From positions 1 through 64,000 of IMG/VR virus record IMGVR_UViG_2515154169_000001: a stretch of DNA of 64,000 nucleotides; one strand, 5' to 3'. This stretch comes from a virus. Its lineage: Duplodnaviria; Caudoviricetes. Position 1 is the first letter of the stretch; every line of letters begins with the position of its first letter. The notes below the pieces were generated by a model that did no database searches, was not told the DNA's origin, and was given only the letters and a program-made list of their open reading frames with translations. The translations under genes and the position numbers were made by a program. Below are positions 34,301 through 63,265 of the stretch, piece by piece.

Positions 34301-34339
34301 TAAGATGCCCCACTAGACGACTGCTGGTTGTGGGCCGGG
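34301..34339 (+). promoter_or_regulatory. Late promoter/leader motif before the capsid gene
   Basis: TAAGAT followed by GCTGGTTGTGGGCCGGG. Confidence 0.7.
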
Positions 34340-34369
34340 TCTCCTGATCGATCACTGGAGATCCGTCCC

Positions 34370-36019
34370 ATGGCCGAGTTCGAGCTTCCTGAGGACCTGA
34401 CTGCCCTCTCCGACGATGAGCTGTCTGAGGTTCTCGACGGCGCCCGCGCCGCGTTCGATGCCCTGTCGTCGTCCGACAACGTCACCCCCGACGGCCTCGC
34501 CGCTATGCGCGAGCTGGCCGCCGGTGTCGAGTCCATCCGCACCGAGCAGGCCGCCCGCGTCGCTGCCGCCGAGGAGGCCGCCCGCGAGATCGAGGCCCTG
34601 GCCGCGCAGATCCGCGGCGAGGAGGAGGCCACCGCAGCGGCCGAGGCCGAGCAGGCCGCCGAGCCGGCCACCGCCGCCGCCGAGCCCGCCCCGGTGGTGG
34701 AGCCGGAGCCCGTCGCCCCGCCCGCCCCGGTCGCGCAGACCGCTTCGGCCGCGCGCCGCTCCCTGAACCTGTCCGGTGTGCGGCAGCGTCAGCCCCGCGT
34801 CCTGCCGGAGCCGCCGGCCCCGACCACCAGCATCACTGCGGCGGTCGATGTCCCCGGCTACACCCCCGGTTCGGCCCTGGAGTTCGGCCAGATCACCGCT
34901 GGGATCATCTCCCGCGCCAACGCCCTCAAGACCGCGGGCGGCGGCGTCGGTCAGGTCATCTCCTACCGGCACCCGTACGCGGCTGACCTCATCGTCACCG
35001 ACTCGTCGTCGGCGCCGGAGGGCACCGAGGTTGCGATGCGGGCGGCCGACCAGCGGCGCCTGCCGCAGCAGAACCTAGTCGCGTCCGGTGGCTGGTGCGC
35101 CCCGTCGGAGACGCTGTACGAGATCACCGACATCGCCTGCCCCGACATGCTGTGGGACCTGCCCGAGGTGCAGCTCGCCCGGGGCGGCCTGCGCTACTAC
35201 AAGACGCCGTCGCTGGACGTCGGCGCCCTGACCTGGGTCCACACCGAGGCCGACGACATCTCCGGCGCCACGAAGCCGTGCTTCAAGGTGCCGTGCCCGG
35301 ACCCGGTGGAGGTCCGCTGTGACGCGGTCGGTGTCTGCCTTGAGGCAGGCATCCTGACGCAGCGCCACTTCCCGGAGCTTGTGTCCTGGTACCTGCGGAA
35401 CACGATGGTCGCCCACGAGATCCGCATCCGCTCCGAGCTGTGGACGAAGGCCACCGCCCTGGCGACCCCGGTCACGCTGGCCGCCACGTTCGGCGCCGTG
35501 TCCGCCGTGTTCGCCGCTGTGGCGCTGCAGGCCGCCGACATGATCGAGCGCCACAGCTTCTGTGACTCGATCAGCCTCGAAGTGGTCTTCCCGTGGTGGT
35601 CGCGGAACCTGTTCCTCGCCGACATCGCGCGCCGTAACGGCGTCGGCATCGACGAGGTCTCCAACGCCGACGTGCAGGACGTGTTCAGCCCGCTCGGTGT
35701 CCGCATCCAGTGGGCCCGCAACCTCACCCCGGCCGTGCCGACCGACATCGGCGGCGCCACCCCCGCCACGGCGTGGCCGGACGAGATCAGCTTCCTGATC
35801 TACCCGGCCGGCCAGCTCCAGCTGGGCCGCGGCGAAGAGGTCAACCTCGGCGTGATCCACGACAGCACGAAGTTCAGCACCAACGACTACACGGCGCTGT
35901 TCGCGGAGGAGTGCATCGCGCTGATCGACCGCTCCGTCGACACCCGGTACGTCACCGTCCCGGTCTGCCCCTCGGGCACCACCGGCGGCCAGCAGCTCCT
36001 GACCTGCCCCGCGGCCTGA
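34370..36019 (+). CDS. Major capsid protein with N-terminal scaffold-like region
   Basis: Ala/Glu coiled coil, ITAAVDVPG, LVASGGWCAPSE..Y, RGG, DS....NDYTALFAEE; position in the module. Confidence 0.85.
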   Translation: MAEFELPEDLTALSDDELSEVLDGARAAFDALSSSDNVTPDGLAAMRELAAGVESIRTEQAARVAAAEEAAREIEALAAQIRGEEEATAAAEAEQAAEPATAAAEPAPVVEPEPVAPPAPVAQTASAARRSLNLSGVRQRQPRVLPEPPAPTTSITAAVDVPGYTPGSALEFGQITAGIISRANALKTAGGGVGQVISYRHPYAADLIVTDSSSAPEGTEVAMRAADQRRLPQQNLVASGGWCAPSETLYEITDIACPDMLWDLPEVQLARGGLRYYKTPSLDVGALTWVHTEADDISGATKPCFKVPCPDPVEVRCDAVGVCLEAGILTQRHFPELVSWYLRNTMVAHEIRIRSELWTKATALATPVTLAATFGAVSAVFAAVALQAADMIERHSFCDSISLEVVFPWWSRNLFLADIARRNGVGIDEVSNADVQDVFSPLGVRIQWARNLTPAVPTDIGGATPATAWPDEISFLIYPAGQLQLGRGEEVNLGVIHDSTKFSTNDYTALFAEECIALIDRSVDTRYVTVPVCPSGTTGGQQLLTCPAA

Positions 36020-36038
36020 TCCCTGCCCGCCCCCATTC

Positions 36039-36071
36039 GTGCCGGGCCCGACCGAGGCGCGGGCCCGGCAC
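36039..36071 (+). terminator. Hairpin after the capsid gene
   Basis: GTGCCGGGCCC...GGGCCCGGCAC. Confidence 0.6.
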
Positions 36072-36096
36072 ACCCCTATGAACACGGAGGCGAGCA

Positions 36097-36930: not shown

Positions 36931-37406
36931 GCAGCAGGAACCTGATCCACATTCAGCCGACCAGGGACCGCCGTGTCGGCTTCGCCCGCTGGGCCGTCGC
37001 GCAGCGCCCGAAGGTCGGCACCGTCGGCCCGCACACGTTCGCCGTCCCGGCCCGCCTCTTCCCCGACATCGCGGAGGAGCTGCTGATCGGCGCTGTGGTC
37101 GACGGCCGGCCGTACGTGTCGCCCGACCAGGCCCCGGCAGCGGCGTCCCCGGAGAGGGAGGGGATCCCCGGGGAGCCGCTGCCGCCCGCTCCTGAGGCGG
37201 CGTACCCGGCGGACCCGGTGCCGCTGCCGCCGCCGGACTTCGCGCCGCTGGAGGACGCCCCCGCCGACGACAGCGACCGAAGCGACGCAAGCCAGGACGA
37301 AGAACCCAACTCGGATGGCAGGTTCGCGTGCGGCGGCTGCCCGCGCGACTTCTCCACGAAGCGCGGGCGGGACCTCCACCAGCGCCAGGCACACCCGGAG
37401 GACTGA
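36927..37406 (+). CDS. Hypothetical protein with C-terminal C2H2 zinc finger
   Basis: FACGGCPRDFSTKRGRDLHQRQAH. Confidence 0.7.
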   Translation: MSSRNLIHIQPTRDRRVGFARWAVAQRPKVGTVGPHTFAVPARLFPDIAEELLIGAVVDGRPYVSPDQAPAAASPEREGIPGEPLPPAPEAAYPADPVPLPPPDFAPLEDAPADDSDRSDASQDEEPNSDGRFACGGCPRDFSTKRGRDLHQRQAHPED

Positions 37407-37410: not shown

Positions 37411-40400
37411 ATGCCCGTCGAGCCCGTTCCCTGCCAGACCGGCGGTGGCGATACCCCGGTAGAGGTCACCACCTGCTGCGCGCCGTCGATCGCCTCGGCG
37501 GCGCTCTGTCGCGCTGACGGCTCGACGGTCCTCCTCGTCGTCCGGTCCGGCTGCGTCGAGTGCGGCGAGGCCGCCCCCGATCCTGAGGTCGCCGGCTGGA
37601 TCGACGCCGCCACCGGCGCGTTCACCGCCGGGCCCCCTCCTGCCGACGCGGGCCCGTGCGATGCCGGCTGTGTGGACACGGTGTGCCGCCAACTGTGCGA
37701 CGACACCGACGGCGACGGCCAGGCCGACGCCACGTACAGCGAGCTGTGGTGCATCCGTGCGGACGGTTCCGCCGAGCTCGTCCTGACGTACCAGGTCGAC
37801 CCGTCCGTGCCATACGTGCCGGTCGCGCCGGTGGAGTGCGCCTACGGGTGCCCCGAGTCGGAGACGGTGACGCTATGCGACGACTCCGGCCCGTTCCTGC
37901 GCCGGTACAGCTTCCTCAACGGGACAGCAACGTACGAGGACGTCGCCCTCGACGGGCAGACCCCGCACGTCGTCACCGGCACCGTCGGCGTCTGCGGGCC
38001 TGACACCTCCTCGGACTGCGTCACCGTCTGCCGCCAACTGTGCGACGACACCGACGGCGACGGCCAGCCCGACGCCACCTACAGCGAACTGTGGTGCGTC
38101 CACGCCGACGGCACCGCCGAGCTCGTCCTCACCTACCAGGACGACCCGTCCGTGCCGTACACGCCGGTCGCCCCGGTCGACTGCGAGTACGCCAACGAGA
38201 CGACCGAAGTCCTGACCCTGTGCGACGACACCGGGCCGTTCCTGCGCCGCTACTCCTGGCTCGGCGACACCGCCAGCTTCGAGGACGTCGAACTGGACGG
38301 CGTCACCCCGCACGTCGTCACCGGCACCGTCGGCGTCTGCGCCGCCCAGACCGAGTGCGAGGCGGCCACGACCCCGGCGGCGACGCTCGGCCTGTGCCTC
38401 GCGGACGGCACACCGATCGCCGTCCTCGTCACCCGCGACTGCACCGGCACGACGACGCAAGACGGATGGCTCAACCTCACCACCGGCGCCTACAGTGCGG
38501 GCAGCCCGCCGGCCGGGACCATGGCGTGCGGCAATCCCCGCAGCATCACCACGGCCGGAACGTTCTGCGACGTCGACCCCAGCACAGGGGACGTCCTCGG
38601 CCTGGTGCTCATCGAGTACACGTACGGCGCGGACGGCGCGGTCACCGCAGTGCGCCTGGTCGACGCCACCACCGGCCAGACCTACGTGCCCCAGGGCGAG
38701 GTGACGACCTGCCCGGCCGGCGTCGAGCAGCCCGAACGCGACCTCGTCCAGCTCTGCGACACCGCCGCCGACGGCACCGTCACCGAGTTCGTCCGGGACT
38801 ACGCCCGCGACGAGAACGGCGCCATCACCGGCCACACGGACTACCTCCTGGACGGTGCGCCCTACACCCCGGCCGGGACCGTGGGCCGCTGCGTCGACCA
38901 GTGCCAGGACTGCGAGACCGTCGTCCTGTGCGACGCCGACGCCAACGAACCGGCCACCGTCGCCGGGACCGCCTCGTCCGGGACGCTGCCCAACGGTGTC
39001 GCTTGGTCGGCAACCGGCCCGGCCCCGTTCGCGCCGAACCGGCAGAGCGACGGCGCGGCCTGGTGGGGCGTGGGTCTCTTCCCCAACCAGGTCGTACCCG
39101 TCACCACGTGGACGTTCAGCCGGCCCGTGACCGTGGACTTCAGCGTCGCCCTGGTCTACGTGGCCGGCACCACCGGCGGGGAGAACACGGTCCAGCTCCC
39201 GCCCGGCGCGATCCCGATCAGCCTCCCGCCCGGCTACACCTACGACCCGGCCACGCGCATCCTGCGCGGGGACGCCACCCTCACCGGCTGCACGATCAAC
39301 GCCCCCACCAGGGCGGCGAGCGCCCGCTTCCGTGTCATCGGGGTGTCCTCCTTCGCGCTGCAGTATCTCGGCCCGCGCGTCCTCGTCCCCGCCTGCCAGC
39401 GCTTCGGGAACTGGCAGTTCGGCGCCCTCGATGTTTCCCTCGGCGGGCAGTTCCTCCGCACCGTGTGCCGGGACTGCACCGGTGCCACCACGTCCGTCAC
39501 GGACACCCTCCTCGACGGCTCCACGCCGTACACGCCGGTCGGGCTCGTGGGCGTCTGCCCGCCCGGAGATGACGGCGAGGGCTGCACCAACGGCACCACG
39601 GTCCTGCTGTGCGACCAGCCTGCCGGGGGGAGCGGGCCGGTCACCGCGGCGATCACGGACGCCACGTCCGCCGACGTCGGGCAGACCCAGTTCACCAACC
39701 TGCCCGGCTCGTACACGTCGCTGTGGTCTGGTGGCTCGCTGGTCTACCCGGCCGGGACGGGTCCGAATCAGGAGCACGCGCAGGCCACGGGCCGGATCAC
39801 CGCCGTGGCGCCGGCCGGGTGCGAGACGTCCGGCGGCACCCTCACGGTGTCCGTCCGGGTCACGCAGAACGGCCCCGGCACCGGGCAGGCATGGGACGGC
39901 GCACTCCGGCTTTTCCGGGGGACGACGCTCCTGGACTTCGACGACGCCCTCACCTACGCGCCGCCCGGCTGGACGAAGACGCTCACCGTGTCCGCTCCGG
40001 TCACGGCCGCCGACCTCACCAGCGGCAACCTGTTCGTCGGTCTCCCCCTGGAGACCTTCCACGGCACCGCGAAGCACTGGACCGCCGACCAGTTCGAGGC
40101 GACGGTCCAGCTCACGGACTGCGCGAGCAGCGAGAGCGTCCAGTTCCTCCGCACGATCGTCACGGACTGCGAGACCGGCGCGGTCGTCGCCACCAGCGAC
40201 ACCACCCTGGACGGCGACCCGTACACCGTCACCGGCGACGTCGGCCAGTGCGCGGCGGCTGGCGGCGACGAGGAGGAGTGCTGCGAGAGCGGCAGCACGC
40301 TGACCCTGTGCGACGTCGCCGACGACGGCACGAGCACGCCGTTCCTGCGCCGCCTCACCTACACCCCCGGTATCGCCACGCCCACCGTTGCGGACTTCGC

Positions 40401-42342
40401 CCTCGACGGCATCACGCCGTACACGGTGGCGGGCACCGTTGGCGTCTGCGCCCCGGAGGCCGAGCCGTGCCGGAACTCCAACTCGCTCCTGCTGTGTGAC
40501 CTGCCCACGGACGGCGACCCTGCGCCGACCGTCACCGACACCCCCGGCGGGCCGTACTACCCGTACACAACGGGCGTGGCCATGCCCGGGGCTCAAACCC
40601 TGTGGGACGGCGGCACGCTCGTCTTCCCGGACGCGGCGGGTCCGCAGCCGGGCACGGGCGGGACCGTCCGCACCGCCGCGGCGGTCATCCAGGCTCCGCG
40701 GCCGGCCTGTGACACGGGCACCGCGCACGTGACGGTGCAGGTCGACGTCACCCAGCTCGGCCCCGACAACGGCTGCCGGAACAGTGGCTTCCTCGGCCTC
40801 TACAACGGCCCCGGCGACGCGAACCGGGTGGCCCTGGCGCTCGCCCCGCTCGACACCCCCGCCGGGTGGTCCGGAACGCTCACCGCCGAGGCCGACGTCC
40901 CCGCCGCCGATCTCGCCGCCGGGAACATCGCCGTCCTAGTCGCGTTCGACGCCTACGACGACAGCGGCGCCACCTGCCCGCCGCCGCGCCGCACCGCCTG
41001 GCAGCTCTCCGCGTTCACCGCCACCACGGCGTACGACCAGACCGGATGCGACACGCAGTTCCTGCGCACCGTCACCGTGGACTGCGAGACCGGGGCCGTG
41101 ACCGCCGTGGTGGACACCACCATGGACGGGCAGCCCTACACGCCCACAGGTCAGCCCGGCCAGTGCTCGGCCACCGGCGGCGCCTGCTGCCCCGAGCAGC
41201 CGTGCGGGGACACCGAGGTCGTCCAGCTCTGTGACCTGACCTACGACCCGCAGGCCCCCATCCCGACCCCGGCCGGAGACTTCACACTGACCGGGAACGT
41301 GGTGGCCGCCAACAACGGCACCACCCTCTGGTTCGCCCAGGCCAATCAGGTGGCCAACGGCGTCGCCGAGCTCCTCGTCTCCGGGCTGCTCCCGGCCACG
41401 CTGTACGAGTTCCGGTTCGCGTCCGCCTGGATCGGCGCGGGAGGCTCCGACCCGGTCGGCAACGCCGCGATCTACCGGCTGGACATCCTCGACGGCGCAA
41501 CGCTGCTCGCCACCAGGACCCGGAACGTCTCCAACGGGTCGAACGTGTTCCCCGGCGGTGTACTGACCGAAGACCTCCCGCCGCTGGCGTTCATCGCCCC
41601 CGCAACGGGCGCGGTCACAATCAGGTTCACCGACCAGACAACCGGCGGCGCGGTCAACGACCGCGACCTGTTCCTCATGCCGTTGGAGGTGCGGACGGCG
41701 GCGCTGACCGTCACCCGCACACCGTTCCTGCGGCGCTTCACCTACGACTGCGACGGCGCCCTCACCTCGACCCAGGACCTCGGGCTGGACGGCACCACGC
41801 CGTACGTTGTGGAGGGCGAGGCAAGCAACTGCGCTGGTGACAGCACGGCTGCCGGGTCGGTAACCCCGTGCGACGTGCAGAACGTCGTCCAGGCGTGCAG
41901 GTGCGACGACACGGACGGCGACGGCCTCGCCGACACCGATTACCTGGAGCTGCTGGGCGTCGACTGTGACGGCCAGCTCACCAGCCTCGGCACCTACCTG
42001 CCGGACCTCTCTGCCCCGTACACCCCGGTCGCCCCGGTCGACTGCGGGCAGGTCGACGAAGGCGCGGACCCGGCCGTCGGAGTCCAGGCGCACCGGATCG
42101 AGCTCAACGCCGAGGCCTCCTGGGACGCCGCTTCGGTCGCGGCCCTGCAATCCGTCACCGCCGTCGCGCACGGCGGCACCGGAACGATCACCACCGTGGA
42201 CGGGGCCAGCACCCTGCACACCGGCGAGGCGGCCACCTGGAGCGTCGCCCGCACCGAGGACGCCGCCCTGACCGGCCCGCTCACCATCACCGCCAATAGC
42301 GGCACCGTGACCGTGACCTGGACGCAGGGGGTGACCCTGTAG
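37411..42342 (+). CDS. Large Cys/Thr/Asp-rich repeat protein (1643 aa), putative virion fibre
   Basis: Repeats LCD...FLR...LDG.TPY...GTVG.C, DTDGDG motifs and inserted beta-rich domains. Confidence 0.85.
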   Translation: MPVEPVPCQTGGGDTPVEVTTCCAPSIASAALCRADGSTVLLVVRSGCVECGEAAPDPEVAGWIDAATGAFTAGPPPADAGPCDAGCVDTVCRQLCDDTDGDGQADATYSELWCIRADGSAELVLTYQVDPSVPYVPVAPVECAYGCPESETVTLCDDSGPFLRRYSFLNGTATYEDVALDGQTPHVVTGTVGVCGPDTSSDCVTVCRQLCDDTDGDGQPDATYSELWCVHADGTAELVLTYQDDPSVPYTPVAPVDCEYANETTEVLTLCDDTGPFLRRYSWLGDTASFEDVELDGVTPHVVTGTVGVCAAQTECEAATTPAATLGLCLADGTPIAVLVTRDCTGTTTQDGWLNLTTGAYSAGSPPAGTMACGNPRSITTAGTFCDVDPSTGDVLGLVLIEYTYGADGAVTAVRLVDATTGQTYVPQGEVTTCPAGVEQPERDLVQLCDTAADGTVTEFVRDYARDENGAITGHTDYLLDGAPYTPAGTVGRCVDQCQDCETVVLCDADANEPATVAGTASSGTLPNGVAWSATGPAPFAPNRQSDGAAWWGVGLFPNQVVPVTTWTFSRPVTVDFSVALVYVAGTTGGENTVQLPPGAIPISLPPGYTYDPATRILRGDATLTGCTINAPTRAASARFRVIGVSSFALQYLGPRVLVPACQRFGNWQFGALDVSLGGQFLRTVCRDCTGATTSVTDTLLDGSTPYTPVGLVGVCPPGDDGEGCTNGTTVLLCDQPAGGSGPVTAAITDATSADVGQTQFTNLPGSYTSLWSGGSLVYPAGTGPNQEHAQATGRITAVAPAGCETSGGTLTVSVRVTQNGPGTGQAWDGALRLFRGTTLLDFDDALTYAPPGWTKTLTVSAPVTAADLTSGNLFVGLPLETFHGTAKHWTADQFEATVQLTDCASSESVQFLRTIVTDCETGAVVATSDTTLDGDPYTVTGDVGQCAAAGGDEEECCESGSTLTLCDVADDGTSTPFLRRLTYTPGIATPTVADFALDGITPYTVAGTVGVCAPEAEPCRNSNSLLLCDLPTDGDPAPTVTDTPGGPYYPYTTGVAMPGAQTLWDGGTLVFPDAAGPQPGTGGTVRTAAAVIQAPRPACDTGTAHVTVQVDVTQLGPDNGCRNSGFLGLYNGPGDANRVALALAPLDTPAGWSGTLTAEADVPAADLAAGNIAVLVAFDAYDDSGATCPPPRRTAWQLSAFTATTAYDQTGCDTQFLRTVTVDCETGAVTAVVDTTMDGQPYTPTGQPGQCSATGGACCPEQPCGDTEVVQLCDLTYDPQAPIPTPAGDFTLTGNVVAANNGTTLWFAQANQVANGVAELLVSGLLPATLYEFRFASAWIGAGGSDPVGNAAIYRLDILDGATLLATRTRNVSNGSNVFPGGVLTEDLPPLAFIAPATGAVTIRFTDQTTGGAVNDRDLFLMPLEVRTAALTVTRTPFLRRFTYDCDGALTSTQDLGLDGTTPYVVEGEASNCAGDSTAAGSVTPCDVQNVVQACRCDDTDGDGLADTDYLELLGVDCDGQLTSLGTYLPDLSAPYTPVAPVDCGQVDEGADPAVGVQAHRIELNAEASWDAASVAALQSVTAVAHGGTGTITTVDGASTLHTGEAATWSVARTEDAALTGPLTITANSGTVTVTWTQGVTL

Positions 42343-42751: not shown

Positions 42752-43999
42752 TCACCCTAGGCCGCGAGGCGATCGGGGCGTTCGACGAGGTGGCCGCGTT
42801 CGAAGCGGTCGCCGGCTCGGACGAGGGCGACCAGGTGAGGTGCGCCACCGTTGCTGGGCGGACTCGACGAGTTTGAAGACCATAGTCAGGGCAGCGGCCG
42901 CGCTGCCGGCCCCGCGGGTGACCTTGGTTCGCAGCCGGACGGTGGCGAGGGTCGACTCAATGGGATTCGTGGTCCGCAGGTGGATCCAGTGCTCGGCCGG
43001 AAAGTCGTAGAACGCCAGCAGCTCGTCCGAGTCGTCGGTGATCTTCTTGACGGCCTTGGGGAACTTCGCGCCGTATGCCTTCTCGAACGCAGTGATGGCC
43101 TTGAGCGCGTGGTCGCGGTCCTCGGCGTTGTAGATCTCCTGCAGGGCCTTCTTCGCGCTGGGCTGCGCGGACTTCGGCAGGGCGCTCGCGACATTGGCGG
43201 TCTTGTGAACCCAGCACCTCTGGTGCCGGGTGGCGGGGAACACCTCGCTGATCGCCTTCCCGAAGCCCAAGGCTCCGTCGCCGACCGCGAGGACGGGGGC
43301 GCGCATGCCGCGTCGCTGGGCGTCCCGCAGCAAGTCGGCCCAGGAGTCGGCCGATTCGCGGTAGCCGTCGGCCATGGCGATCAGTTCCTTGGTGCCGTCG
43401 GCGCGCACGCCCATCAATACCAGCACATATGACCTGGCCTCGCGCAGGCGGATGCGCAGGTGGATGCCGTCGGCCCAGACGTAGACGTAGTCGGCCCCTG
43501 GCAGGTCGCGCTCGCCGAACGCGGTGTGGTCGGCCTGCCACTGCTGGGTGAGCCGCGTGACGGTCGCCGGGGAGAGTCCGGCGGAGCTGCCCAGGAACTG
43601 CTCCAGGGCGGCCACGAAGTCGCCGGTGGACAGGCCGTGCAGGTAGAGCAGCGGCAGCACCTCGCTGATCTTCGGGGACTTGCGGCACCAGGGCGGCAGG
43701 ATCGCCGAGGAGAACCGCTTGCGCTCACCCGTCGCCTCGTCGACGCGCTTGTCGTTCACCCGCGGGGCCTTCACCTCGACCGTCCCGGCCGCGGTGGTGA
43801 CCTTCCGCGGCTGGTGGTGGCCGTTGCGGACCACCAGACGGCGCCCGCGCTCGTCGCGCTCGCCAGCCAACTCGGCTATATAGGCATCGACTTCGGCCTC
43901 CAATGCGGCGGCCAGCATCCGCCTTGCACCCTCACGGACGATGTCGTCGATCAGAGAGCGGGTCTCGGTCGTTCCATCGGCATTCACTACGCTCAGCAC
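42752..43999 (-). CDS. IS256 (Mutator) transposase, frameshifted near the C-terminus
   Basis: VRNG, YVWADG, AVGDGA, QRCWVH, RTTNPIES; the expected APHLVALVRAG tail is in another frame from ~42845. Confidence 0.9.
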   Translation of the reverse strand: MLSVVNADGTTETRSLIDDIVREGARRMLAAALEAEVDAYIAELAGERDERGRRLVVRNGHHQPRKVTTAAGTVEVKAPRVNDKRVDEATGERKRFSSAILPPWCRKSPKISEVLPLLYLHGLSTGDFVAALEQFLGSSAGLSPATVTRLTQQWQADHTAFGERDLPGADYVYVWADGIHLRIRLREARSYVLVLMGVRADGTKELIAMADGYRESADSWADLLRDAQRRGMRAPVLAVGDGALGFGKAISEVFPATRHQRCWVHKTANVASALPKSAQPSAKKALQEIYNAEDRDHALKAITAFEKAYGAKFPKAVKKITDDSDELLAFYDFPAEHWIHLRTTNPIESTLATVRLRTKVTRGAGSAAAALTMVFKLVESAQQRWRTSPGRPRPSRRPLRTRPPRRTPRSPRGLG

Positions 44000-45351: not shown

Positions 45352-45388
45352 TAGCCTTATCGGTGATGCCGCTGGTTCTGGGCCGGGC
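45352..45388 (+). promoter_or_regulatory. Late promoter/leader motif
   Basis: TAGCCT-N10-GCCGCTGGTTCTGGGCCGGGC. Confidence 0.8.
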
Positions 45389-45420
45389 TCCTTGTCATCA
45401 GTGACCGAGGAGTTCTCCCT

Positions 45421-50307: not shown

Positions 50308-50343
50308 TATGCTGGTGGCAGCGCCGCTGGTTCTGGGCCGGGC
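50308..50343 (+). promoter_or_regulatory. Late promoter/leader motif
   Basis: TATGCT-N9-GCCGCTGGTTCTGGGCCGGGC. Confidence 0.8.
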
Positions 50344-50369
50344 CGCACCAACACGTGTTGGAGGGCCTG

Positions 50370-54476: not shown

Positions 54477-54845
54477 GTTTCACCTCCTCTTTCGTCACGT
54501 GCGCGGAAGAGGGGGTGTTTGCCAGCGAAGGCACACCGTTGAAGGACAAGCCTATGGGCGCCTGGGCAGTTGAAATGACGATTCTCGGGACTTTTCTTCT
54601 GTGGCAGCAGCAACTCGGTTGCCAACCGCGTGAATTCGCAGGTCAGGGAAGCCATCCGGTGAAGTCGACGGCGAGACGTGTTGTGCGCGACCAGCCCAAC
54701 CCAAAGGCGCATGCCGGGCATCTCGTGCTTATCGGTCGTTAACGCCGGACTCTCACGGTAGTGGCGGGTGATCTCCGCGCTGCATCCGTCCCCGAGTTGA
54801 TCACTCCGGGATCACGCTGAAGCGCTCGCCGGCGAGGCGTACGAC

Positions 54846-54881
54846 TACCCTTCCCCATACGCCGCTGGTTCTGGGCCGGGC
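54846..54881 (+). promoter_or_regulatory. Late promoter/leader motif
   Basis: TACCCT-N9-GCCGCTGGTTCTGGGCCGGGC. Confidence 0.8.
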
Positions 54882-54909
54882 GAAGCGCGGGAGACCAAGG
54901 ACTACGCCC

Positions 54910-55440
54910 GTGAAGAAGACGTTCTCGTTGCATACGGAGCCGCACATCGCCGATGTGGGCGGCCGGGAGTTGCAGTTCCTGCCCGAGGTGATGGGCGATC
55001 AGTTCATGGACGCTTACAGCGGGCTCATCGAGGCGCAGCGGACGGCCAGCGGCATCGACCTCGAAGACCTCTCGACCGTCGACGCGAACCAGCTGCGAGG
55101 CGCGGCCCGGGCGATGCGGACGTTCCTGGCGGAGCTGATGCTGCCGGAGTCCGCCGAGCTGTTCACCCGCGTGCACGTGGTCAAGGACGGCCAGGTGCTG
55201 ATGCAGTTGCCGAACCGGGAGGCCGCTCAGGAGTACGCGGACCAGGTGGAGGGCGGTCCTGCGCAGGTCGTGGACGCGTTCCCGCTGCCGGACCGCATCC
55301 TGGTCCAGCTGCTGGAGTGGGTCGTCGAGCTGTACGGAGGGGGCGCCGGAGAGCGCCCTACTGGACCGTCCTCAGGCTCTGCGACAGCATCGCGGAGGGC
55401 TGGGAGGCGTGGGATGGGAGTGCCCTCCTCCAGGGCGTGA
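54910..55440 (+). CDS. Tail assembly chaperone (G-like)
   Basis: Upstream of the tape measure gene; ends WVVELYG...RPT..SS.S. Confidence 0.8.
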   Translation: MKKTFSLHTEPHIADVGGRELQFLPEVMGDQFMDAYSGLIEAQRTASGIDLEDLSTVDANQLRGAARAMRTFLAELMLPESAELFTRVHVVKDGQVLMQLPNREAAQEYADQVEGGPAQVVDAFPLPDRILVQLLEWVVELYGGGAGERPTGPSSGSATASRRAGRRGMGVPSSRA

Positions 55441-55697
55441 ACATCCGGACGTTCACGCTGCGCCAGATGCTCGCCGCAGCGGAGGCCACCATGGACCAGG
55501 CGGCCAACGATGACGCGGAGCGGGCCCGGAACAGGGCCCAGCTGTACGCCCCGCCGAAGGGTCAGCGACGCCGCCGCACTCGGGACGGCGAGCGCGACCG
55601 GCCGACGGGCGACGGCATGAAGATGCGTGACGCGCAGCAGCTCATGGCACAGCTGGCCGCCCAAGACGCCCACCTTGCCGGGGGGCGCAGCGGCTAG
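55356..55697 (+). CDS. Tail assembly chaperone frameshift extension (T-like, -1 frame)
   Basis: Overlapping -1 ORF PYWTVLRLCDSIAEGW...QLYAPPKG. Confidence 0.7.
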   Translation, partial: PYWTVLRLCDSIAEGWEAWDGSALLQGVNIRTFTLRQMLAAAEATMDQAANDDAERARNRAQLYAPPKGQRRRRTRDGERDRPTGDGMKMRDAQQLMAQLAAQDAHLAGGRSG

Positions 55698-55734
55698 TCT
55701 GGGATCACCGGCGGGCCTCTGGGGCGCCGCCGAT

Positions 55735-55755
55735 GCCGCTGGTTCTGGGCCGGGC
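55735..55755 (+). promoter_or_regulatory. Late leader motif before the tape measure gene
   Basis: GCCGCTGGTTCTGGGCCGGGC, about 30 nt before the GTG. Confidence 0.8.
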
Positions 55756-55784
55756 AACCTCTCCACACCTCGTGAGGTTGCCCG

Positions 55785-58700
55785 GTGCCCGGCGATGAGA
55801 TCGACTACGGCAGCGCGACCATCCGGATCGAGCTGGATGACGTCGAGGCTGTCAGCGACGCCCGCGATCTGGGTCTGCGGATCCGGCGGGCCTTGGACCG
55901 GGCGACGCGCGACACCGGCGACCTGATCCGCCGCAACATCGAGCGCGGCATGCGCGCCGCCGCCGTCGCGGTCACCGTCGAGCCCGACCTGCGCCGCTTC
56001 GAGTCGGCGCTCCTCACCGGCCTGCGGGGCCTGGGCAGCATCAGCATCCCCGTGGAGCCGGACCTGACCGGCTTCACCGAGCGCCTGCGCGCCCACCTCG
56101 CAGGGGAGGAGCTGCGCGTCCAGGTCGTGCCGGACCTGGCCCGCTTCGACTCGGGCCTCCTCACCGGCCTGAGGTCGCTGGACTCCATCAACGTGCCGGT
56201 GACGCCGGACCTGACCGGGTTCGTCGAGCGGATCCGGGCGCTCCTCGCCGGCGAGGAGTTCGCCGTCCGGGTCGTGCCGGACATGGACGGCTTCGATGAC
56301 CGGATCCGGGCGCACAACCCGCCGGACGTGACGGTCGACGTGAATGCCGACGTCGACAGCAACCGGTTCACGCGGGCCCTGTCCGGCCTCGGCAGGATCG
56401 CAGGCCGTGTCGGCTCGGGCCTGACCAGCCTGCTGCAGTTCGGCGCGGTCGGGATCGCCGCGGCGGGCGCCGCGCAGGGCGTGATCGGCCTGACGGCCGC
56501 GCTCGCCCCCGCGGCCGGGATCATCGCTGCGCTGCCCGCCGCCGTCGCGGGGTTCCAGGCCGCGCTGGGCACGCTGCGCCTGGCCGTCGTCGGTGTCGGT
56601 GACGCCCTCGGTGCCGCGTTCGCCGGCGACGCCGCGAAGTTCCAGGAGGCCCTGGAGAAGCTGTCGCCGTCCGCGCAGAAAGCCGTCCTCGCGGTCAAAG
56701 AGTTCGCGCCGGAGCTGAAGAAGGTCCAGCAGTCCGTCCAAGAGGCGTTCTTCTCCCAGTTCGCCGGCGAGATCTCCGGCGCGGTCAAGAACCTGCTGCC
56801 GATGCAGAGCGGGCTGCGGGCCATCGCGTTGGGGTTCGGGCAGGCCGCGCAGGAGGGGTTGAAGTTCCTGCAGACGCGGCAGGCCCTCGCGTCCGTGATG
56901 GGTGTCCTCGCCGGGACGTCCGACGCCGTGGAGGGTTTGTCTGCCGCTGTAGGCCCGCTGGCGCAGGGCCTCCTCAGTGTGGCGTCGTCTGTGTCGCAAG
57001 CGTTCGGGGCGCGGCTGGGCACGGCGCTGGGCGGCCTCGGCCAGCAGCTCGGGGACTTCCTGACCCGCATCGCGAACAACGGGCAGGCGGTCGCCTGGGT
57101 TGAGGGTGCGCTGACGGTCTTCAAGCAGCTCGGCTCGATCATCTCGAACGTTGGCCAGATCCTCAGCGGCGTCTTCCAGGCCGCGAACGCCTCCGGCGGC
57201 GGGCTGCTGAACAACCTCAAGCAGATCACCGCCTCGTTCGCCGAGTTCGTCAACTCCGCGCAGGGCCAGGAGGCGATCGGGAACATCTTCTCAACGCTGG
57301 CCACGGTCGCCGCCCAGCTCGGCCCGATCCTGTCTGCCGTCGTGACGCAAGTCGGCGCCATCGCGCCCGCGCTGGCGCCGATCTTCACCGCGCTCGGCCC
57401 CGCCATCGTCAACCTCGTCAACGCGCTCGGCCCCGCGCTGGCCGCGATCGCGCCCGCGCTCGCTACCGTCGGCCAGGCCCTCGCGCAGGGGCTCGGCGCG
57501 CTCGGCCCGTCCTTAGCGCCGCTCGGCGAGGCCATCGGCCGCGCAGTCACCGCGCTGGCCCCGCTGCTGCCCCTGGTCGGCGAGGTCGCCGGCGCCGTGG
57601 CGCAGATCCTCGCCCCCGCGCTGGACATCCTGACGTCGGTCCTGTCCCCGATCATCGACGCGCTCGTGGCGGCGCTCCTGCCGATCCTGCCGCAGATCGC
57701 CACCGCGTTCACGACCCTCGGCGCCGCCCTGGGGCCGGTCGCGGACGTCCTCGGCAAGAGCCTCGGCGACGCCCTGACCCGCCTGCTGCCGCCGATCCTG
57801 GAGCTGATCCCGCAGATCCAGGGGAAAATGGTCCCGGCGTGGATCGCGCTGGCGGAGGCGGTCACTCCGCTGATCCCGGAGCTGGTCAACCTCGTCGTGC
57901 TGGCCATCGAGCCGCTGCTGCCGATGCTGCCTCAGCTCGTCGACATGATCGCCGACCTGTCCGCGAACTTCGTGCTGGCGCTGGCCGCGGTCGTGCCGAT
58001 CCTGCCGCCGCTGGTCCGGCTGTTCACGACCGTCTCGCAGTTCATCGCGTCGAAGACGACTTTCCCCCTGCTGCAAGGACTGGTCGACGTCCTCGGGCTC
58101 CTCGTCGGCGCAGTGACGACGGCCCAGACGGCGGCGCGGAACTTCTTCACCGGCACCATCCAGTTCTTCGTCGACCTGGGCTCGGGCATCCTCGACGCGC
58201 TGACCAGCCTGCCCGAGCGGATCGCGACGTTCTTCACCGGCCTGTGGACCACGGTCAGCACGGCCGTGGTGACCGGCTTCAACGCCGTGGTGACGTTCTT
58301 CGCCCAGCTACCCGGGTTGATCCTGTCGGCACTGGCCGCACTGCCAGGCCTCCTGATCTCCTTCTTCGTCAACGCCATCGCTGGGCTCGGCATCGCGATC
58401 CTCACCGGCATCGCCGCCGTGATCTTCGTGTTCACCGAGCTGCCCGGCATGATCGTCAGCGCGCTGGCGTCGCTCGGCTCGACGCTGCTGACGTTCTTCA
58501 CCACCGCGTTCACCACGGTCGTAGCGGCGGTGACCAGCTTCATCAGCCAGGTCGTGGCGTTCTTTGCCGCCCTACCAGGGCAGATCGCCTCGTTCCTGGC
58601 TTCGCTGCCCGGGCGCGTCGTCAGCTTCTTCCGGTCGGCCGGCTCGTCCGCGCTCTCCACGGCACGCAGCTACGGCACGCAGGTGATCAACTTCTTCCGG

Positions 58701-60401
58701 GAGTTGCCCGGCCGGATCGCCTCCGGCCTGTCGTCGCTGGGCTCGAAGCTCGCCGAGAAGCTGCAGAGCGCGGGCTCGGCGGCGTTGCGCGGCGCGCAGC
58801 AACTGATCTCGACCATCGCGAACGCCTTCACCAAGCTGCCCGGTCTGATCCTCGGGAAGATCGGCGACATCGGCAGCCAGATCCGCCAGAAGATCGCGGG
58901 CGGCCTCCCGGCGAGCGTGCGCGGCCTCATCCCCGGCTTGGCGAACGGCGGCATCGTCACCGGCCCGACGTTCGCCATGCTGGGCGAGGGCAGCCGGCCC
59001 GAGGTCGTCATCCCCCTAACCAAGCCGAAGCGTGCGCGGGAACTCGCAGCGAAGTCCGGCCTGCTGAACCTGCTGGCCGGGCCGGCGCAGGCCGCCACGC
59101 TCGCGGCGAGCAGCGTGCCCGCGGTGCGCGGCGGCGGCTCCGTGAAGGACTTTGAGAACGTCGGGCGGCAGATCGGGGCGGGCCTCGTCGCGGGCCTGCG
59201 CGCCTCCCTCGGCGACGTGGACCAGACGACCCAGGACCTCGTCGGCATCGCCATCACCACGGCGGAGAAGGTTCTCGAGATCGCTAGCCCTTCGAAGGTG
59301 TTCGCCCGGATCGGGAAGGACACCGGCCGAGGCTTCATCGTCGGACTGACCGGCACCGCCGACCAGATCAAGGCGACCACGGACAAGCTGATCAAGTCCA
59401 TCACGGACGCCTTCAAGGGCAAGGCGACCAAGGTCGACGACCGGCTCGTGACGCTGCTGCAGAGCGGCAACAAGAAGCTGACGAGCCTGGCAGCGCAGCG
59501 CGACGCGCTCGTGAAGAAGATCGCCGACGCCCAGAAGTTCGCCGCCGACACCACGGCGTCGGTACTCCAGGCGTTCTCTCTGCAGAGCCTCACCCAGGGC
59601 GGCGGGAAGCTGACGGCGGACAGCATCGTCGCGGGCCTGGACGGGGCCCTGTCGAAGGTGCGCAGTTTCACGTCGCAGATCAACGCCCTCGCGCGGCGCG
59701 GGCTCCGCAAGGATCTGCTGCAGCAGATCATCGGGCTCGGCCCTGAGCAGGGCGCTGAGCTCGCGCGGGTCCTCAGCACCACGGACAAGGCGACGTTCAA
59801 GCGGATCAACTCGATGCAGGCGCAGCTCGTCAGCGCCTCCAACGTCCTCGGCCGCACCGGCGCCGACGTCCTGTTCGACGCGGGCAAGAACGCGGGCGCC
59901 GGGTTCCTCGCCGGGTTGCAGGGGCAGCGTAAGGCGATCGAGAAGCTGATGGTGGACATCGCCAAGTCCATGCAGAAGGCCATCCGTACGGCGCTGAGGA
60001 TCAAGAGCCCGTCGGTGGTTTTCCGGAAGATCGGCGAGATGACCGGCCTCGGTCTGCGGCTCGGTCTGGTCGGTCAGATCGCCGCGCTGCAGAAGGCGTC
60101 GACGTCGGCGGCCCGCGCTGTGGTCGATGCGGTCGGCGGGCAGTTCGATGCGCTGCCCGGCCGGGTCGGGTCGCCGCTTGACGGGCTGGGCACCGGCAAC
60201 GTCATCCCGCTGACCCGGGCGCAGAAGCGCCGCCAGGTCGCCACTGAGATCAGCGCCGCCGAGCTGGCCCGGGGCCGCGCCGCCGTCGACAAGGCCGGGA
60301 CGGTCTTCAACAACACGTTCAACATCACCGAGGTCGGAGACGCAGGCGCGACCGCGCAGCGCGTCCTGAACCGCCTCACGTACGCGGCAGGGGTGAGCTG
60401 A
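55785..60401 (+). CDS. Tape measure protein
   Basis: 1538 aa, Ala/Leu helical repeats, LANGGIV...GE..PEVVIPL and I.SPS motifs. Confidence 0.92.
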   Translation: MPGDEIDYGSATIRIELDDVEAVSDARDLGLRIRRALDRATRDTGDLIRRNIERGMRAAAVAVTVEPDLRRFESALLTGLRGLGSISIPVEPDLTGFTERLRAHLAGEELRVQVVPDLARFDSGLLTGLRSLDSINVPVTPDLTGFVERIRALLAGEEFAVRVVPDMDGFDDRIRAHNPPDVTVDVNADVDSNRFTRALSGLGRIAGRVGSGLTSLLQFGAVGIAAAGAAQGVIGLTAALAPAAGIIAALPAAVAGFQAALGTLRLAVVGVGDALGAAFAGDAAKFQEALEKLSPSAQKAVLAVKEFAPELKKVQQSVQEAFFSQFAGEISGAVKNLLPMQSGLRAIALGFGQAAQEGLKFLQTRQALASVMGVLAGTSDAVEGLSAAVGPLAQGLLSVASSVSQAFGARLGTALGGLGQQLGDFLTRIANNGQAVAWVEGALTVFKQLGSIISNVGQILSGVFQAANASGGGLLNNLKQITASFAEFVNSAQGQEAIGNIFSTLATVAAQLGPILSAVVTQVGAIAPALAPIFTALGPAIVNLVNALGPALAAIAPALATVGQALAQGLGALGPSLAPLGEAIGRAVTALAPLLPLVGEVAGAVAQILAPALDILTSVLSPIIDALVAALLPILPQIATAFTTLGAALGPVADVLGKSLGDALTRLLPPILELIPQIQGKMVPAWIALAEAVTPLIPELVNLVVLAIEPLLPMLPQLVDMIADLSANFVLALAAVVPILPPLVRLFTTVSQFIASKTTFPLLQGLVDVLGLLVGAVTTAQTAARNFFTGTIQFFVDLGSGILDALTSLPERIATFFTGLWTTVSTAVVTGFNAVVTFFAQLPGLILSALAALPGLLISFFVNAIAGLGIAILTGIAAVIFVFTELPGMIVSALASLGSTLLTFFTTAFTTVVAAVTSFISQVVAFFAALPGQIASFLASLPGRVVSFFRSAGSSALSTARSYGTQVINFFRELPGRIASGLSSLGSKLAEKLQSAGSAALRGAQQLISTIANAFTKLPGLILGKIGDIGSQIRQKIAGGLPASVRGLIPGLANGGIVTGPTFAMLGEGSRPEVVIPLTKPKRARELAAKSGLLNLLAGPAQAATLAASSVPAVRGGGSVKDFENVGRQIGAGLVAGLRASLGDVDQTTQDLVGIAITTAEKVLEIASPSKVFARIGKDTGRGFIVGLTGTADQIKATTDKLIKSITDAFKGKATKVDDRLVTLLQSGNKKLTSLAAQRDALVKKIADAQKFAADTTASVLQAFSLQSLTQGGGKLTADSIVAGLDGALSKVRSFTSQINALARRGLRKDLLQQIIGLGPEQGAELARVLSTTDKATFKRINSMQAQLVSASNVLGRTGADVLFDAGKNAGAGFLAGLQGQRKAIEKLMVDIAKSMQKAIRTALRIKSPSVVFRKIGEMTGLGLRLGLVGQIAALQKASTSAARAVVDAVGGQFDALPGRVGSPLDGLGTGNVIPLTRAQKRRQVATEISAAELARGRAAVDKAGTVFNNTFNITEVGDAGATAQRVLNRLTYAAGVS

Positions 60402-61726: not shown

Positions 61727-62790
61727 TGGCCGTTGCCGGATGCGGGAGTCACTCGGTGCGCGTGGTCGACCGGGGCGGTGGTGTTGTCGCCACCGGCTCC
61801 GTCCTCACCGAGGTGGAATGGAGCCGCGTGCTCGATGACGTCTCCACGGCCCGGGCGGTGATCAACCCGGATGGCGACTGCTGCGGCCCGCTCGGCGCCG
61901 TCCGCGCGTGGAGGCACCGCCTGGTGGTCTACCGGGACGACCGGTACGTGTGGGACGGTCCGATCACCAACGTGGACTGGGGGATCGGCAGCGTTGAGCT
62001 GTTCGCAGAGGACGTCACGGCTTGGCTCGGGAACCGGGTGCCGCACCAGAACCTGACGTACAAGAACGCCGACCTGACGACCATCGCAGCCGAGTTGATC
62101 GCGGACGGGTTCTTCCCGGACGACCCGGGTCACGACGTCCGGATCATGGCCCCGGCCGAGGTCACCGGCTCCCGCACGTACACGCGGAACGTGGGCCAGG
62201 TCCTCGACCACCTGAAAGACCTCGCTGAGGCCGGGCTCGACTTCACCGCGATCGGCTCGACGATCCTGCTGCTCCCCGAGACGTGGCGCGAGCGCGTCGG
62301 CCGGCTCTCCGATGCCGACTTCCCCGAGGGCCTGTCGGTGGCGGAGGACGGCAAGGGCTTGGCGACCCGCGTGATCGTCGCCGGGCAACAGCAGACCGCT
62401 TCGGACGGCACCGTGACGGACCAGGTGATCGGCGAGGCCGGGGGGATCGACCCGTACTACGGGCTGCACGAGCGGTACGTGGAGCAGACCAGCATCACGG
62501 ACACCGCGTCGGCGACGTCGGCGGCGCAGGCCCTCGTGCGGTCGAGCCGGACTGTGCCGGTCTTCATCGACACCCAGGAGGTGACGATCAGCCCGGACAG
62601 CGCCGTCGACGTCGCCGACCTCGTGCCGGGCTGGTGCCTGGACGTCACCAGCGCCGCGACGTGCCGGACCGTCGCCCAGCGCCTCAAGATCGTCGGCGTC
62701 AAGGTCACCGAGACCGGCGGCAGCGACACCGACCCGGGCGGGGAGAGCGTGCAGGTCCAGGTGGCGGCAAGCGGAGCGGAGGCGGCCTGA
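61726..62790 (+). CDS. Minor tail (hub-like) protein
   Basis: WSRVLDDVS.A, L.VYRD...VW.GP, LVPG. Confidence 0.75.
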   Translation: MAVAGCGSHSVRVVDRGGGVVATGSVLTEVEWSRVLDDVSTARAVINPDGDCCGPLGAVRAWRHRLVVYRDDRYVWDGPITNVDWGIGSVELFAEDVTAWLGNRVPHQNLTYKNADLTTIAAELIADGFFPDDPGHDVRIMAPAEVTGSRTYTRNVGQVLDHLKDLAEAGLDFTAIGSTILLLPETWRERVGRLSDADFPEGLSVAEDGKGLATRVIVAGQQQTASDGTVTDQVIGEAGGIDPYYGLHERYVEQTSITDTASATSAAQALVRSSRTVPVFIDTQEVTISPDSAVDVADLVPGWCLDVTSAATCRTVAQRLKIVGVKVTETGGSDTDPGGESVQVQVAASGAEAA

Positions 62791-63224
62791 TGGCGATGCG
62801 AGGAACACCGGCCCGGCGGGCCGCAGTCGTGGGGGGCCCGCTCGTCGGCGTGCTGCGTGAGGTCGACCGGCGCTCCCGGTCGACGACCCGGGTCCGGGGC
62901 CCCGTCGCGCAGCCCGTGGAGGGCCGTGAGGGTCCGCCCGGCCCGCAGGGTCCGCCCGGGCCGCCGGCCACGCGGACCGCGGCCGCCGTCGTCGAGACAG
63001 GCGCCGACGGGTCCGTGCGGTGGGACTTTGCCGAGGCGTTCGCCGCGCCGCCCGTGGTCGGGGCGCTGCTGGTGACGCCCGGCGGGGGCCAGCTGCTGAC
63101 CGCGACGCTGGAGGAGGTGACGGCCGCGTACGCCGTCGTCCGGGTGTGGCGGCACAAGGGCGGCCGGTCCTACGCGGCGGACCCGGGCCAGGCTGTGCAC
63201 CTGACCGCGACGGCGGCGAGCTGA
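62790..63224 (+). CDS. Small tail protein with a short collagen-like stretch
   Basis: GPPGPQGPPGPP and FAAPPVV. Confidence 0.65.
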   Translation: MAMRGTPARRAAVVGGPLVGVLREVDRRSRSTTRVRGPVAQPVEGREGPPGPQGPPGPPATRTAAAVVETGADGSVRWDFAEAFAAPPVVGALLVTPGGGQLLTATLEEVTAAYAVVRVWRHKGGRSYAADPGQAVHLTATAAS

Positions 63225-63231
63225 CGCGGGC

Positions 63232-63265
63232 TACCCTGCTGGGGCAGTCGCTGGTTCTGGGCCGG
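63232..63265 (+). promoter_or_regulatory. Late promoter/leader motif
   Basis: TACCCT-N9-GTCGCTGGTTCTGGGCCGG. Confidence 0.8.

Follow-up and report, generated by a model that had tools for sequence, protein, structure and literature searches.

Leader hairpins of the virion-gene units

The IMG/VR provirus record IMGVR_UViG_2515154169_000001 is 76,158 bp long, with a G+C content of approximately 70%, and its first 64 kb constitute the stretch analyzed here (the window). A short leader motif precedes six genes of the window: those for the major capsid protein (start at 34370), a 778-aa phrog_18824 protein (45421), the major tail protein (50370), a tail-chaperone-like protein (54910), the tape measure protein (55785), and a Cys-rich fibre or minor-tail protein (63293). 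Together with the bases that close it, the motif forms a leader hairpin of 21 nt, whose structure, distribution, and possible function are considered below.

A 19-mer search of the window, allowing up to three mismatches, yields six matches at 34320 (three mismatches), 45368, 50323, 54861, and 55735 (exact), and 63247 (one mismatch). All are intergenic and on the plus strand, and they are exactly the copies listed in the original prediction, which rested on inspection of the sequence. The expectation from shuffled windows is 0.17 matches; the largest count was one, and none of 100 shuffles reached six. The 16-nt core GCTGGTTNTGGGCCGG, searched with up to one mismatch over the whole record, occurs nine times in the forward and never in the reverse orientation, and the reversed-pattern control gives no match there. 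The three copies beyond the window lie at record positions 64168, 65084, and 67483. All nine copies are intergenic, and the most repeated 11-mer of the whole provirus record comes from the leader motif. Copies six to eight head three Cys-rich fibre or minor-tail genes starting at 63293, 64211, and 65126. The ninth copy heads a gene at about 67527 that precedes the endolysin gene; its TTG start at 67527 is our own reading. The terminase, portal, and MuF-protease genes upstream of the capsid unit carry no hairpin copy.

The six units of the window have a common layout, on the plus strand throughout. In the capsid unit, the -10-like hexamer TAAGAT (34301..34306) ends 16 nt before core base G1. 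The leader hairpin ACU-GCUGGUUGUGGGCCG-GGU follows at 34320..34340, with closing pairs A-U, C-G, and U-G and a score of 32.4 bits under R1, a covariance model built on this clade alone. Next come a second hairpin, GUCUCC...GGAGAU, which includes the Shine-Dalgarno site (34339..34369), and the ATG of the major capsid gene (34370-36019; phrog_777 major head protein). The second unit consists of hexamer TAGCCT (45352..45357), a leader hairpin with the GCC/GGC stem (45368..45388; 37.4 bits), and a CUCCUU...GAGGAG hairpin with the Shine-Dalgarno site (45387..45420) before the GTG of the phrog_18824 gene 45421-47757. In the tail unit, TATGCT (50308..50313) and the leader hairpin (50323..50343; 38.7 bits) are followed by a CCAACA..UGUUGG hairpin and then GGAGGG (50342..50369), preceding the ATG of the major tail protein gene (50370-51074; phrog_792).

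The chaperone unit has hexamer TACCCT (54846..54851), a leader hairpin (54861..54881; 37.7 bits), and a leader with GGGAG (54880..54909) before the GTG of the tail assembly chaperone-like gene (54910-55440), which matches gene 26 of the Streptomyces phage TurkishDelight. The tape measure unit departs from the rest in its promoter spacing: hexamer TAGTCT (55695..55700) is 37 nt before the core, and a GC-rich hairpin-forming stretch is inserted between the two, which places this copy in the class with a box 21-70 nt upstream and an intervening hairpin. Its leader hairpin (55735..55755; 40.3 bits) is followed by a GCAACCUC...GAGGUUGC hairpin with the Shine-Dalgarno site (55754..55784) and the GTG of the tape measure gene (55785-60401). 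In the last unit, hexamer TACCCT (63232..63237) precedes a leader hairpin with the stem GUC/GAC, that is, with a compensated U-A middle pair (63247..63267; 35.2 bits), a CUCAC...GUGAG hairpin with GGGG (63266..63292), and the ATG of a tail-fibre-like gene (phrog_863), which starts at 63293 and runs past the window end.

The gap from the core end to the start codon is 31, 34, 28, 30, 31, and 27 nt in these six units, and 26-34 nt over the nine copies of the record. The TAnnnT distances of the original prediction, counted from its 19-mer (13, 10, 9, 9, "much further", and 9 nt), hold and correspond to 16, 13, 12, 12, 37, and 12 nt from G1. Over the nine copies the box ends 9-16 nt before the core, with the tape measure copy at 37 nt.

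The proteins encoded directly behind the hairpins often start with Cys-x-Cys or Cys-Cys within the first five to eight residues (genes at 45421 and 63293, and at 64211 and 65126 of the record). Such CxC proteins form the largest class of downstream genes in the family described below (64 of 225). A 61-aa open reading frame (ORF) ahead of the capsid leader, 33359-33544, also encodes an N-terminal Cys motif, M-x-C-x-C. The protein encoded at 45421-47757 has a giant paralogue of 1643 aa (37411-42342). Both match phrog_18824, with no function assigned and no Pfam family, and only the gene at 45421-47757 has a leader hairpin.

Distribution and covariation of the hairpin

In IMG/VR, 107 contig stretches contain the exact 16-mer, usually in the layout of -10 box, "gcc", core, "gc", a variable hairpin with the ribosome-binding site, and start codon. 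A scan of bacterial genomes with the 18-mer yields at least 119 stretches. The matches listed fall into two groups: phage-type units, which belong to Streptomyces, Kitasatospora, and Micromonospora, and chance matches within coding sequences of unrelated bacteria, for example in membrane-protein genes. In one complete 7.3-Mb Streptomyces chromosome, all eight exact copies fall on a single strand within a 25-kb prophage stretch (4,571,577-4,596,697), and one-mismatch matches elsewhere on this chromosome are not above the reversed-pattern control. Thus, the leader motif is not a host genome-wide repeat, a possibility that the original prediction had raised against itself. A host regulon sharing the looser frame GCTGG-N5-GGCCGG was also considered and rejected: the chromosome has 53 matches, eight of them the prophage copies, versus 61 in the reversed control.

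An isolated representative is provided by the temperate Streptomyces phage TurkishDelight (MW291017, 93.6 kb), which has ten copies, all on the plus strand and in the structural module. They head the genes for the capsid, the tail tube (a tandem pair of copies), the chaperone, the tape measure (again a tandem pair), and three minor-tail or tailspike proteins. The provirus and TurkishDelight have in common essentially the portal-to-lysin module and three other genes. In the TurkishDelight-like Streptomyces phages and prophages as a whole, the family heads capsid, tail tube, chaperone, tape measure, and minor tail or fibre genes and the lysis cassette.

No Rfam family matches the motif: a scan of the whole window with Rfam 15 at gathering thresholds finds the tRNA alone, and a permissive scan of 54700-55900, which holds two copies, gives just a 17-bit snoRNA chance match (E 2.4). 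Literature searches with the motif strings, in either orientation and also written as RNA, return unrelated papers only, and those with the strings of the sibling forms described below return no match; supplementary files and subscription journals are outside this coverage. TurkishDelight is not named among the literature matches listed. The hairpin is a real, widespread, and structured motif, and the leader hairpins look like an undescribed family, either a phage leader RNA or a start-associated regulatory repeat. Outside phages, several enterobacterial plasmids of about 34 kb contain up to four copies each of an unannotated 29-nt stretch that agrees with the motif region at 26 of 29 positions (E 0.08); this plasmid repeat probably has no relation to the motif.

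All copies with at most two mismatches were collected from the fetched loci, yielding 411 instances (380 unique). As seed copies were fetched by exact match, the 163 copies with one or two mismatches are the fairer witnesses of conservation. In the 275 instances with phage-type flanks, conservation reaches at least 95% at each core position other than position 8 (C154, G75, T34, A12). The mutual information of position 8 with the leader or the start region does not exceed 0.10 bit; hence, pairing between them was rejected and position 8 is a free loop base.

Covariation was analyzed in 234 instances retained solely for sharing a locus and strand with another copy, irrespective of architecture, so that about nine chance matches are included. 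The three bases before the core covary with the last core base and the next two (pairs -3:18, -2:17, and -1:16). The main flank combinations are GCC/GGC (157), GCT/GGC (30), and GCT/AGC (12), while GCC/AGC does not occur. The rarer ones are ACC/GGT (4), GTC/GAC (3), GCC/GGT (3), GTT/GAC (2), GTC/GGC (2), and ACC/GGC (1). Replacement of G16 by A is seen just with U at -1 (13 of 13). By our tally, there are about 39 G-U cells and a single A-C cell (ACC/GGC); G-U pairs being common and A-C pairs nearly absent, it is the sense strand that folds, as RNA.

In an alignment of 150 instances drawn at random from the 234, two-sided changes affect all three stem pairs (7, 4, and 8 cells) and the helix is 94.8% paired. 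Its covariation score is 0.109 versus 0.069 in shuffles, none of 500 shuffles reaching it, and slid controls of the helix score far lower. The covariation check proposed with the original prediction thus gave a positive answer for the 3-bp stem. A16 with U at -1 is found in second copies of tail-tube tandems and in tape-measure, minor-tail, and other leaders, and the U-A middle pair in fibre and chaperone leaders. Since the compensated variants sit in different gene contexts, several independent events have to be assumed. A class with an extra base after G1 (gccG-A/U-CUGG) retains the GCC/GGC stem.

On these comparisons, the element is very probably a sense-strand RNA hairpin, in which a 3-bp stem closes a nearly invariant 15-nt loop. 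The putative 21-nt stem-loop would consist of the covarying stem (positions -3 to -1 with 16 to 18) and the loop GCUGGUUNUGGGCCG. Within the loop, an inner helix of G4-C14, G5-C13, and U6-G, a tetraloop-like tip, and a GCU/G internal loop are likely. The fold originally proposed, CUGGUU-CUG-GGCCGG, has the lowest free energy when the 21-mer is folded in isolation (-5.3 kcal/mol), and its inner pairs G4-C14, G5-C13, U6-G12, and U7-G11 can stay. Its outer register, however, is wrong: the outer pair C2-G16 lacks covariation and has eight C-A cells. A at position 10 is always accompanied by G at position 7 (4 of 4 instances in this clade), and a similar alternation of U...G and G...A is known from tetraloops. 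Likeness to a T-loop, an anticodon loop, or Chi was dropped by eye, as sibling clades alter the loop tip and the covariation contradicts the stem registers involved.

Sibling forms are found in other actinophages. In phage phiSAJS1, GCTGGCGGTAGGCCGG precedes the tail-tube and capsid genes, and a form longer by one base precedes the tape measure gene. Phage TP1604 has the form GCTGGCGTTAGGCCGG, and Gordonia phage Kroos has GCTGGCTAGGGGCCGG ahead of the capsid and tail-tube genes and a variant ahead of the lysin gene. All three show the same frame behind TAnnnT boxes and the same closing-stem logic. Judging from their taxonomy lines, phiSAJS1 and TP1604 belong to Woodruffvirus. Phages YDN12, Maih, and BabyGotBac match the window, as does TP1604; these three are assigned to Cluster BG in the abstract of PMC5511901. 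Scans of IMG/VR for the sibling cores yielded 87 and 30 stretches. The 19 unique Kroos-type instances have flanks GCT/GGC (9), GTC/GGC (4), ATC/GAT (2), and ATC/GGT, ATC/GAG, and GTC/GAC (1 each), and one further instance is a chance match.

Common to all clades are GCUGG-N5-GGCCG and the covarying stem, and the five tip bases are typical of each clade (UUNUG, CGKUA, or CUAGG). Single contigs, such as IMGVR_UViG_2558860984_000001, combine both tip types, so the tip seems to have a structural role, and recognition more likely involves the GCU/G internal loop and the G-C pairs on either side of it. The R1 model scores the window copies at 32-40 bits and the sibling forms at 11-17 bits, in the noise; therefore, sibling membership rests on context and manual alignment.

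Placement, folding, and possible mode of action

In 184 of the 223 instances with enough upstream sequence, a TAnnnT box ends 6-20 nt before G1, and in 168 it ends at 9-14 nt. Beyond 21 nt, no single distance has more than four matches, and just two boxes are nearer than 9 nt. The hexamer consensus is TA[G/C][A/C]CT, with C at position 5 in 94% of cases and G two bases ahead of the hexamer in 60%. As originally noted, no shared -35 element is visible, either in the window units or in the upstream regions of the 223 instances. The box may be the -10 element of a sigma-70 (HrdB/SigA) type promoter, in which a -35 element is optional. Among the 39 instances with no near box, 18 have a hairpin between the core and a box 21-70 nt upstream, 12 are second tandem copies, two have a distant box and no hairpin, and seven have no box, four of these seven being non-phage chance matches. 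Start sites usually follow a -10 box by 6-8 nt, which would put the first base of the transcript 0-5 nt ahead of the first stem base. With just two boxes below 9 nt, the first stem base is almost never ahead of the expected start site, and the hard lower limit would fit a need to transcribe the whole hairpin. On the other side, the start codon is 25-34 nt behind the core in 187 of 225 instances, the longer gaps belonging to first copies of tandems.

The second hairpin begins at position 17, and its 3' arm includes the Shine-Dalgarno bases, as in CUCC...GGAG or GCAACC...GGUUGC. In 202 leaders, the pairing probability of the Shine-Dalgarno site is 0.67, versus 0.545 with a shuffled upstream arm (Wilcoxon p = 5e-13), a modest and model-based difference. 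For 29 tape-measure leaders, RNAalifold extends the downstream hairpin into motif bases G15-C18, in competition with the covarying stem. Under standard energy rules, only two of the 202 leaders include the covarying fold in their minimum-energy structure, and enforcing it costs about 10 kcal/mol. Once it is enforced, the start codon is unpaired with a probability of 0.54 instead of 0.34 and the Shine-Dalgarno site with one of 0.34 instead of 0.30, again modest effects of the model. We read this as suggesting that the functional fold needs stabilization from outside, and that the start region would open when the fold is held.

A natural explanation, to which we give about an even chance, is that the 5'-leader hairpin is bound by a conserved factor gating translation, stability, or both, of all virion messages. 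The stem-loop would lie at, or just a few bases from, the 5' end of late transcripts made from a "-10 only" promoter (TAnnCT). Next in the leader would come the second hairpin with the ribosome-binding site, and the start codon would follow some 30 nt on. The stem-loop would serve as the docking site of a trans-acting factor encoded by the phage or the host. Holding the hairpin fold may free the start region from stronger alternative pairing, protect the 5' end, or both, and the translation and stability of all virion mRNAs may be gated together; the start sites, the factor, and the direction of control in this scheme are what we infer. A more far-reaching version, put forward as a tentative idea with odds somewhat against it, is a regulon-wide "late-message tag": a single factor recognizing the GCU/G internal loop would permit all virion mRNAs to be translated and shield their 5' ends, a post-transcriptional late switch common to the TurkishDelight-like, Woodruffvirus, and Kroos-like phages.

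Several observations weigh against control by such a factor. The invariance of the core is partly by construction, given the exact-match retrieval of the seeds, and the promoters and the 5'-terminal position of the hairpin are predictions for every member. In the Kroos-like phages the start codon is 41-51 nt and the -10 box 15-22 nt off; hence, the tight geometry is clade-specific. Sequestering any G-rich 21-mer would raise accessibility, so the computed gain is not specific to this fold. Pairing of the motif's 3' half with the pre-start region exceeds controls by a small margin only (-10.5 versus -9.6 kcal/mol, p 0.006). Finally, candidates for the factor gave no usable lead: the small Zn-ribbon ORFs at 29421-30043 and the 61-aa ORF at 33359-33544 match no RNA-binding family in Pfam and Atlas searches. 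In phiSAJS1, the portal gene directly adjoins the MuF-like gene, and counterparts of the Zn-ribbon ORFs are absent.

Regarding the distribution of these candidates, the three small Zn-ribbon ORFs, located behind the portal gene, are also present in TurkishDelight, and the 61-aa M-x-C-x-C ORF is found in the Streptomyces clades and not in Kroos. Other partners were considered and rejected. A WhiB-like gene is present in TurkishDelight, phiSAJS1, and TP1604, and none was found in the provirus record, which disqualifies WhiB as a common late activator. Pairing with 16S rRNA gives a duplex of -34.4 kcal/mol; shuffled motifs average -30.1, and 11 of 300 shuffles reach the value of the motif itself. 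The 7-9-nt match to CGGCCCAGA is within chance. The C-rich loops of the host 6C small RNA would pair with any Shine-Dalgarno site, with no specificity for the motif.

The main rival explanation, which we regard as unlikely but ahead of the others, is a nut- or TAR-like site: the 5' hairpin, while still nascent, would load a processivity or antitermination factor onto RNA polymerase, and downstream terminators would be read through. The element is indeed promoter-proximal and orientation-specific, its promoter distance is variable, and sites of this type, such as lambda N-boxB and HIV Tat-TAR, are usually small hairpins whose internal loop is invariant. Upstream GC-rich hairpins of -25 kcal/mol or below occur at 13.7% of units versus 4.4% of coding controls. 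This enrichment of terminator-like hairpins is modest, however, for which reason the idea of a terminator ahead of each unit was abandoned, and a simple terminator scan gave two sites versus 4.1 expected. Antitermination is disfavored because nearly every unit has its own promoter (184 + 18 + 2 of 223 have a -10 box), so that read-through is not obviously needed, and because the distance from the element to the start codon varies much less than that to the promoter. Abundance of -10 boxes also bears on another scenario, an RNA processing site, where a host or phage endoribonuclease would cut at the hairpin and release separate stable virion messages, much as RNase III processes messages in T7. 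The intergenic position ahead of genes for abundant proteins, the tandem copies, and the copies with no near -10 box could be understood in this way. Cleavage, however, needs neither the placement of 184 of 223 copies directly behind a -10-like box nor the sharp lower distance limit, and the helix is far shorter than RNase III substrates; we consider processing improbable.

Equally improbable, in our view, is a passive 5'-terminal stabilizer that blocks 5'-end-dependent RNases such as RNase E and RNase J without a specific partner. The predicted unpaired 5' tail of 0-5 nt in most TurkishDelight-like copies (TAnnnT gap of 9-14 nt) agrees with the rule known for 5' stabilizers. Such a function does not need a fixed sequence, yet 14 loop positions are invariant over hundreds of copies and three phage clades; in addition, a 3-bp stem on a 15-nt loop is predicted to be weak by standard energy rules, and some copies stand behind other hairpins or second in a tandem. 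A DNA site at +1 to +20 of late promoters, whether a repressor's operator or stoperator or a site for downstream activation, would account for the overlap with the predicted start site and for an asymmetric, intergenic element oriented with transcription, similar to the L5 stoperators as excerpted in PMC3203893. The late regulon acting through a downstream element, as originally proposed, stands insofar as the copies mark virion-gene units behind a -10-like box, and its RNA form is favored by the stem covariation with G-U pairs and the tolerance of extra hairpins. The alternative of a DNA downstream activator explains neither the covariation, which at all three closing pairs keeps pairing rather than sequence (including A16 only with U at -1), nor the -10 box distances, which run from 9 to more than 37 nt. 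The motif is also the same over many prophages, where we would expect immunity operators to differ. We therefore rate a DNA site slightly below the two preceding explanations. Least credible, to the point of near dismissal, is a chance repeat, a host genome-wide repeat, or a Chi-like recombination signal. The motif starts with GCTGGT like Chi of Escherichia coli, and the 18-mer does arise by chance in membrane-protein genes of unrelated bacteria; yet the shuffles predict a fraction of one copy, the element is never located within genes of the phages, and in the Streptomyces chromosome it is confined to the prophage, with the looser frame at control level outside.

Leader-RNA control by a bound factor has a precedent in phage Mu, where a small RNA hairpin is located beside a structure occluding the start of mom, and binding of Com opens the start region. 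The leader hairpins resemble the Mu system (PMC6483171, excerpts) in having a small phage RNA hairpin, here next to a structure that may occlude the start, to judge from the modest model values given above. Opening by a factor is only predicted here, and Mu has one target gene compared with 9-10 per genome here. A Pfam scan of small ORFs (29421-30043, 33359-33544, and others) for a Com-like zinc-finger protein gave no family above the cut-off. Lambda N-boxB (nut) and HIV Tat-TAR also feature a promoter-proximal nascent hairpin. Its loop or bulge is invariant, and it acts in cis and in one orientation at variable promoter distance. They differ from the leader hairpin in that there is no sequence likeness, the hairpin is tightly spaced from start codons, and nearly each unit has its own promoter. 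Neither a boxA nor an N-like gene turned up, in an analysis with no search aimed at N-like proteins and no boxA or boxB model. The stoperators of L5 and Cluster A, which PMC3203893 mentions, are likewise many oriented, asymmetric, intergenic sites in the virion-gene arm. Repressors bind them as duplex DNA; the pairing covariation and G-U pairs of the leader hairpin, in contrast, point to RNA.

The nearest published analogue is the start-associated sequence (SAS) of Cluster K mycobacteriophages with its extended form (ESAS), as described in excerpts of PMC3203893. This 13-bp sequence, GGGATAGGAGCCC, is 3-7 bp from the start, overlaps the ribosome-binding site, and belongs to the non-structural arm. 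Its authors propose a role in translation initiation, and the excerpts report no support for RNA pairing in ESAS (PMC3203893). Both elements are short asymmetric repeats with many copies in one orientation just upstream of starts, absent from the host genome and kept across subclusters (PMC3203893). The leader hairpin differs in sequence, in its position 26-34 nt upstream and behind a -10 box, in its location in the virion-gene arm, and in its RNA-type covariation. Cluster O phages have a 17-bp repeat, TGTTCGGNNNCCGAACA, in dozens of copies, some near gene starts, together with several predicted SigA-like promoters (PMC4351075, excerpts). That repeat is a perfect palindrome, for which there is little evidence of a link between orientation and the direction of transcription (PMC4351075, excerpts), whereas the leader hairpin is asymmetric and always on the sense strand.

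The leader hairpin offers a sequence-defined, covariation-supported handle on late control, extending over 9-10 late units per genome and from Streptomyces prophages to isolated Streptomyces and Gordonia phages. To our knowledge, the way in which actinobacteriophages turn on their virion genes is largely obscure, and a late-message tag, if real, would fill part of this long-open gap in actinophage late-gene activation. Because isolated phages exist, the question is directly testable. The hairpin may also be useful as an annotation marker of late transcription units and as a compact candidate part for phage-dependent expression in Streptomyces.

Further genes of the provirus

A degenerate seventh copy, originally suggested at 18227, did not survive scrutiny: R1 has no match there even at E<=10. 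The site (18207-18245, after TATGCT) is directly followed by a tRNA-Gly(UCC) gene, 18262-18334, and is most simply seen as the promoter region of this gene. The gene at 18465-19910, 130 nt downstream of the tRNA gene, encodes the Pfam domains "Phage DNA Adenine Methylase-like domain 1" and "Phage GNAT-like domain"; its product has no sequence match in PDB. Mom of phage Mu, a GNAT enzyme, transfers glycine from Gly-tRNA-Gly to adenine in DNA, according to excerpts of PMC13219725. Given this reaction and the adjacency of the tRNA-Gly and GNAT-like genes, the phage tRNA may feed a Mom-like DNA hypermodification enzyme.

The large terminase gene (21761-24370) contains an intein (PF14890, residues 125-510), around which the terminase matches are split. 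Between the two giant phrog_18824 genes, a transposase of the Mutator/IS256 family is encoded on the minus strand (42752-43999), its DNA being 74% identical to transposases of mycobacteriophages UncleRicky and Eradicator. Close to the provirus edge, a defence-like gene on the minus strand (2531-7192) encodes a 1553-aa protein with a caspase-like domain (Peptidase_C14) and STAND NTPase signatures. Finally, the fibre gene at record positions 65126-67087 contains a repeat of about 315 bp, with 11-mers recurring at 65458, 65773, 66088, and 66412, and holds the single N of the record, at 65452.

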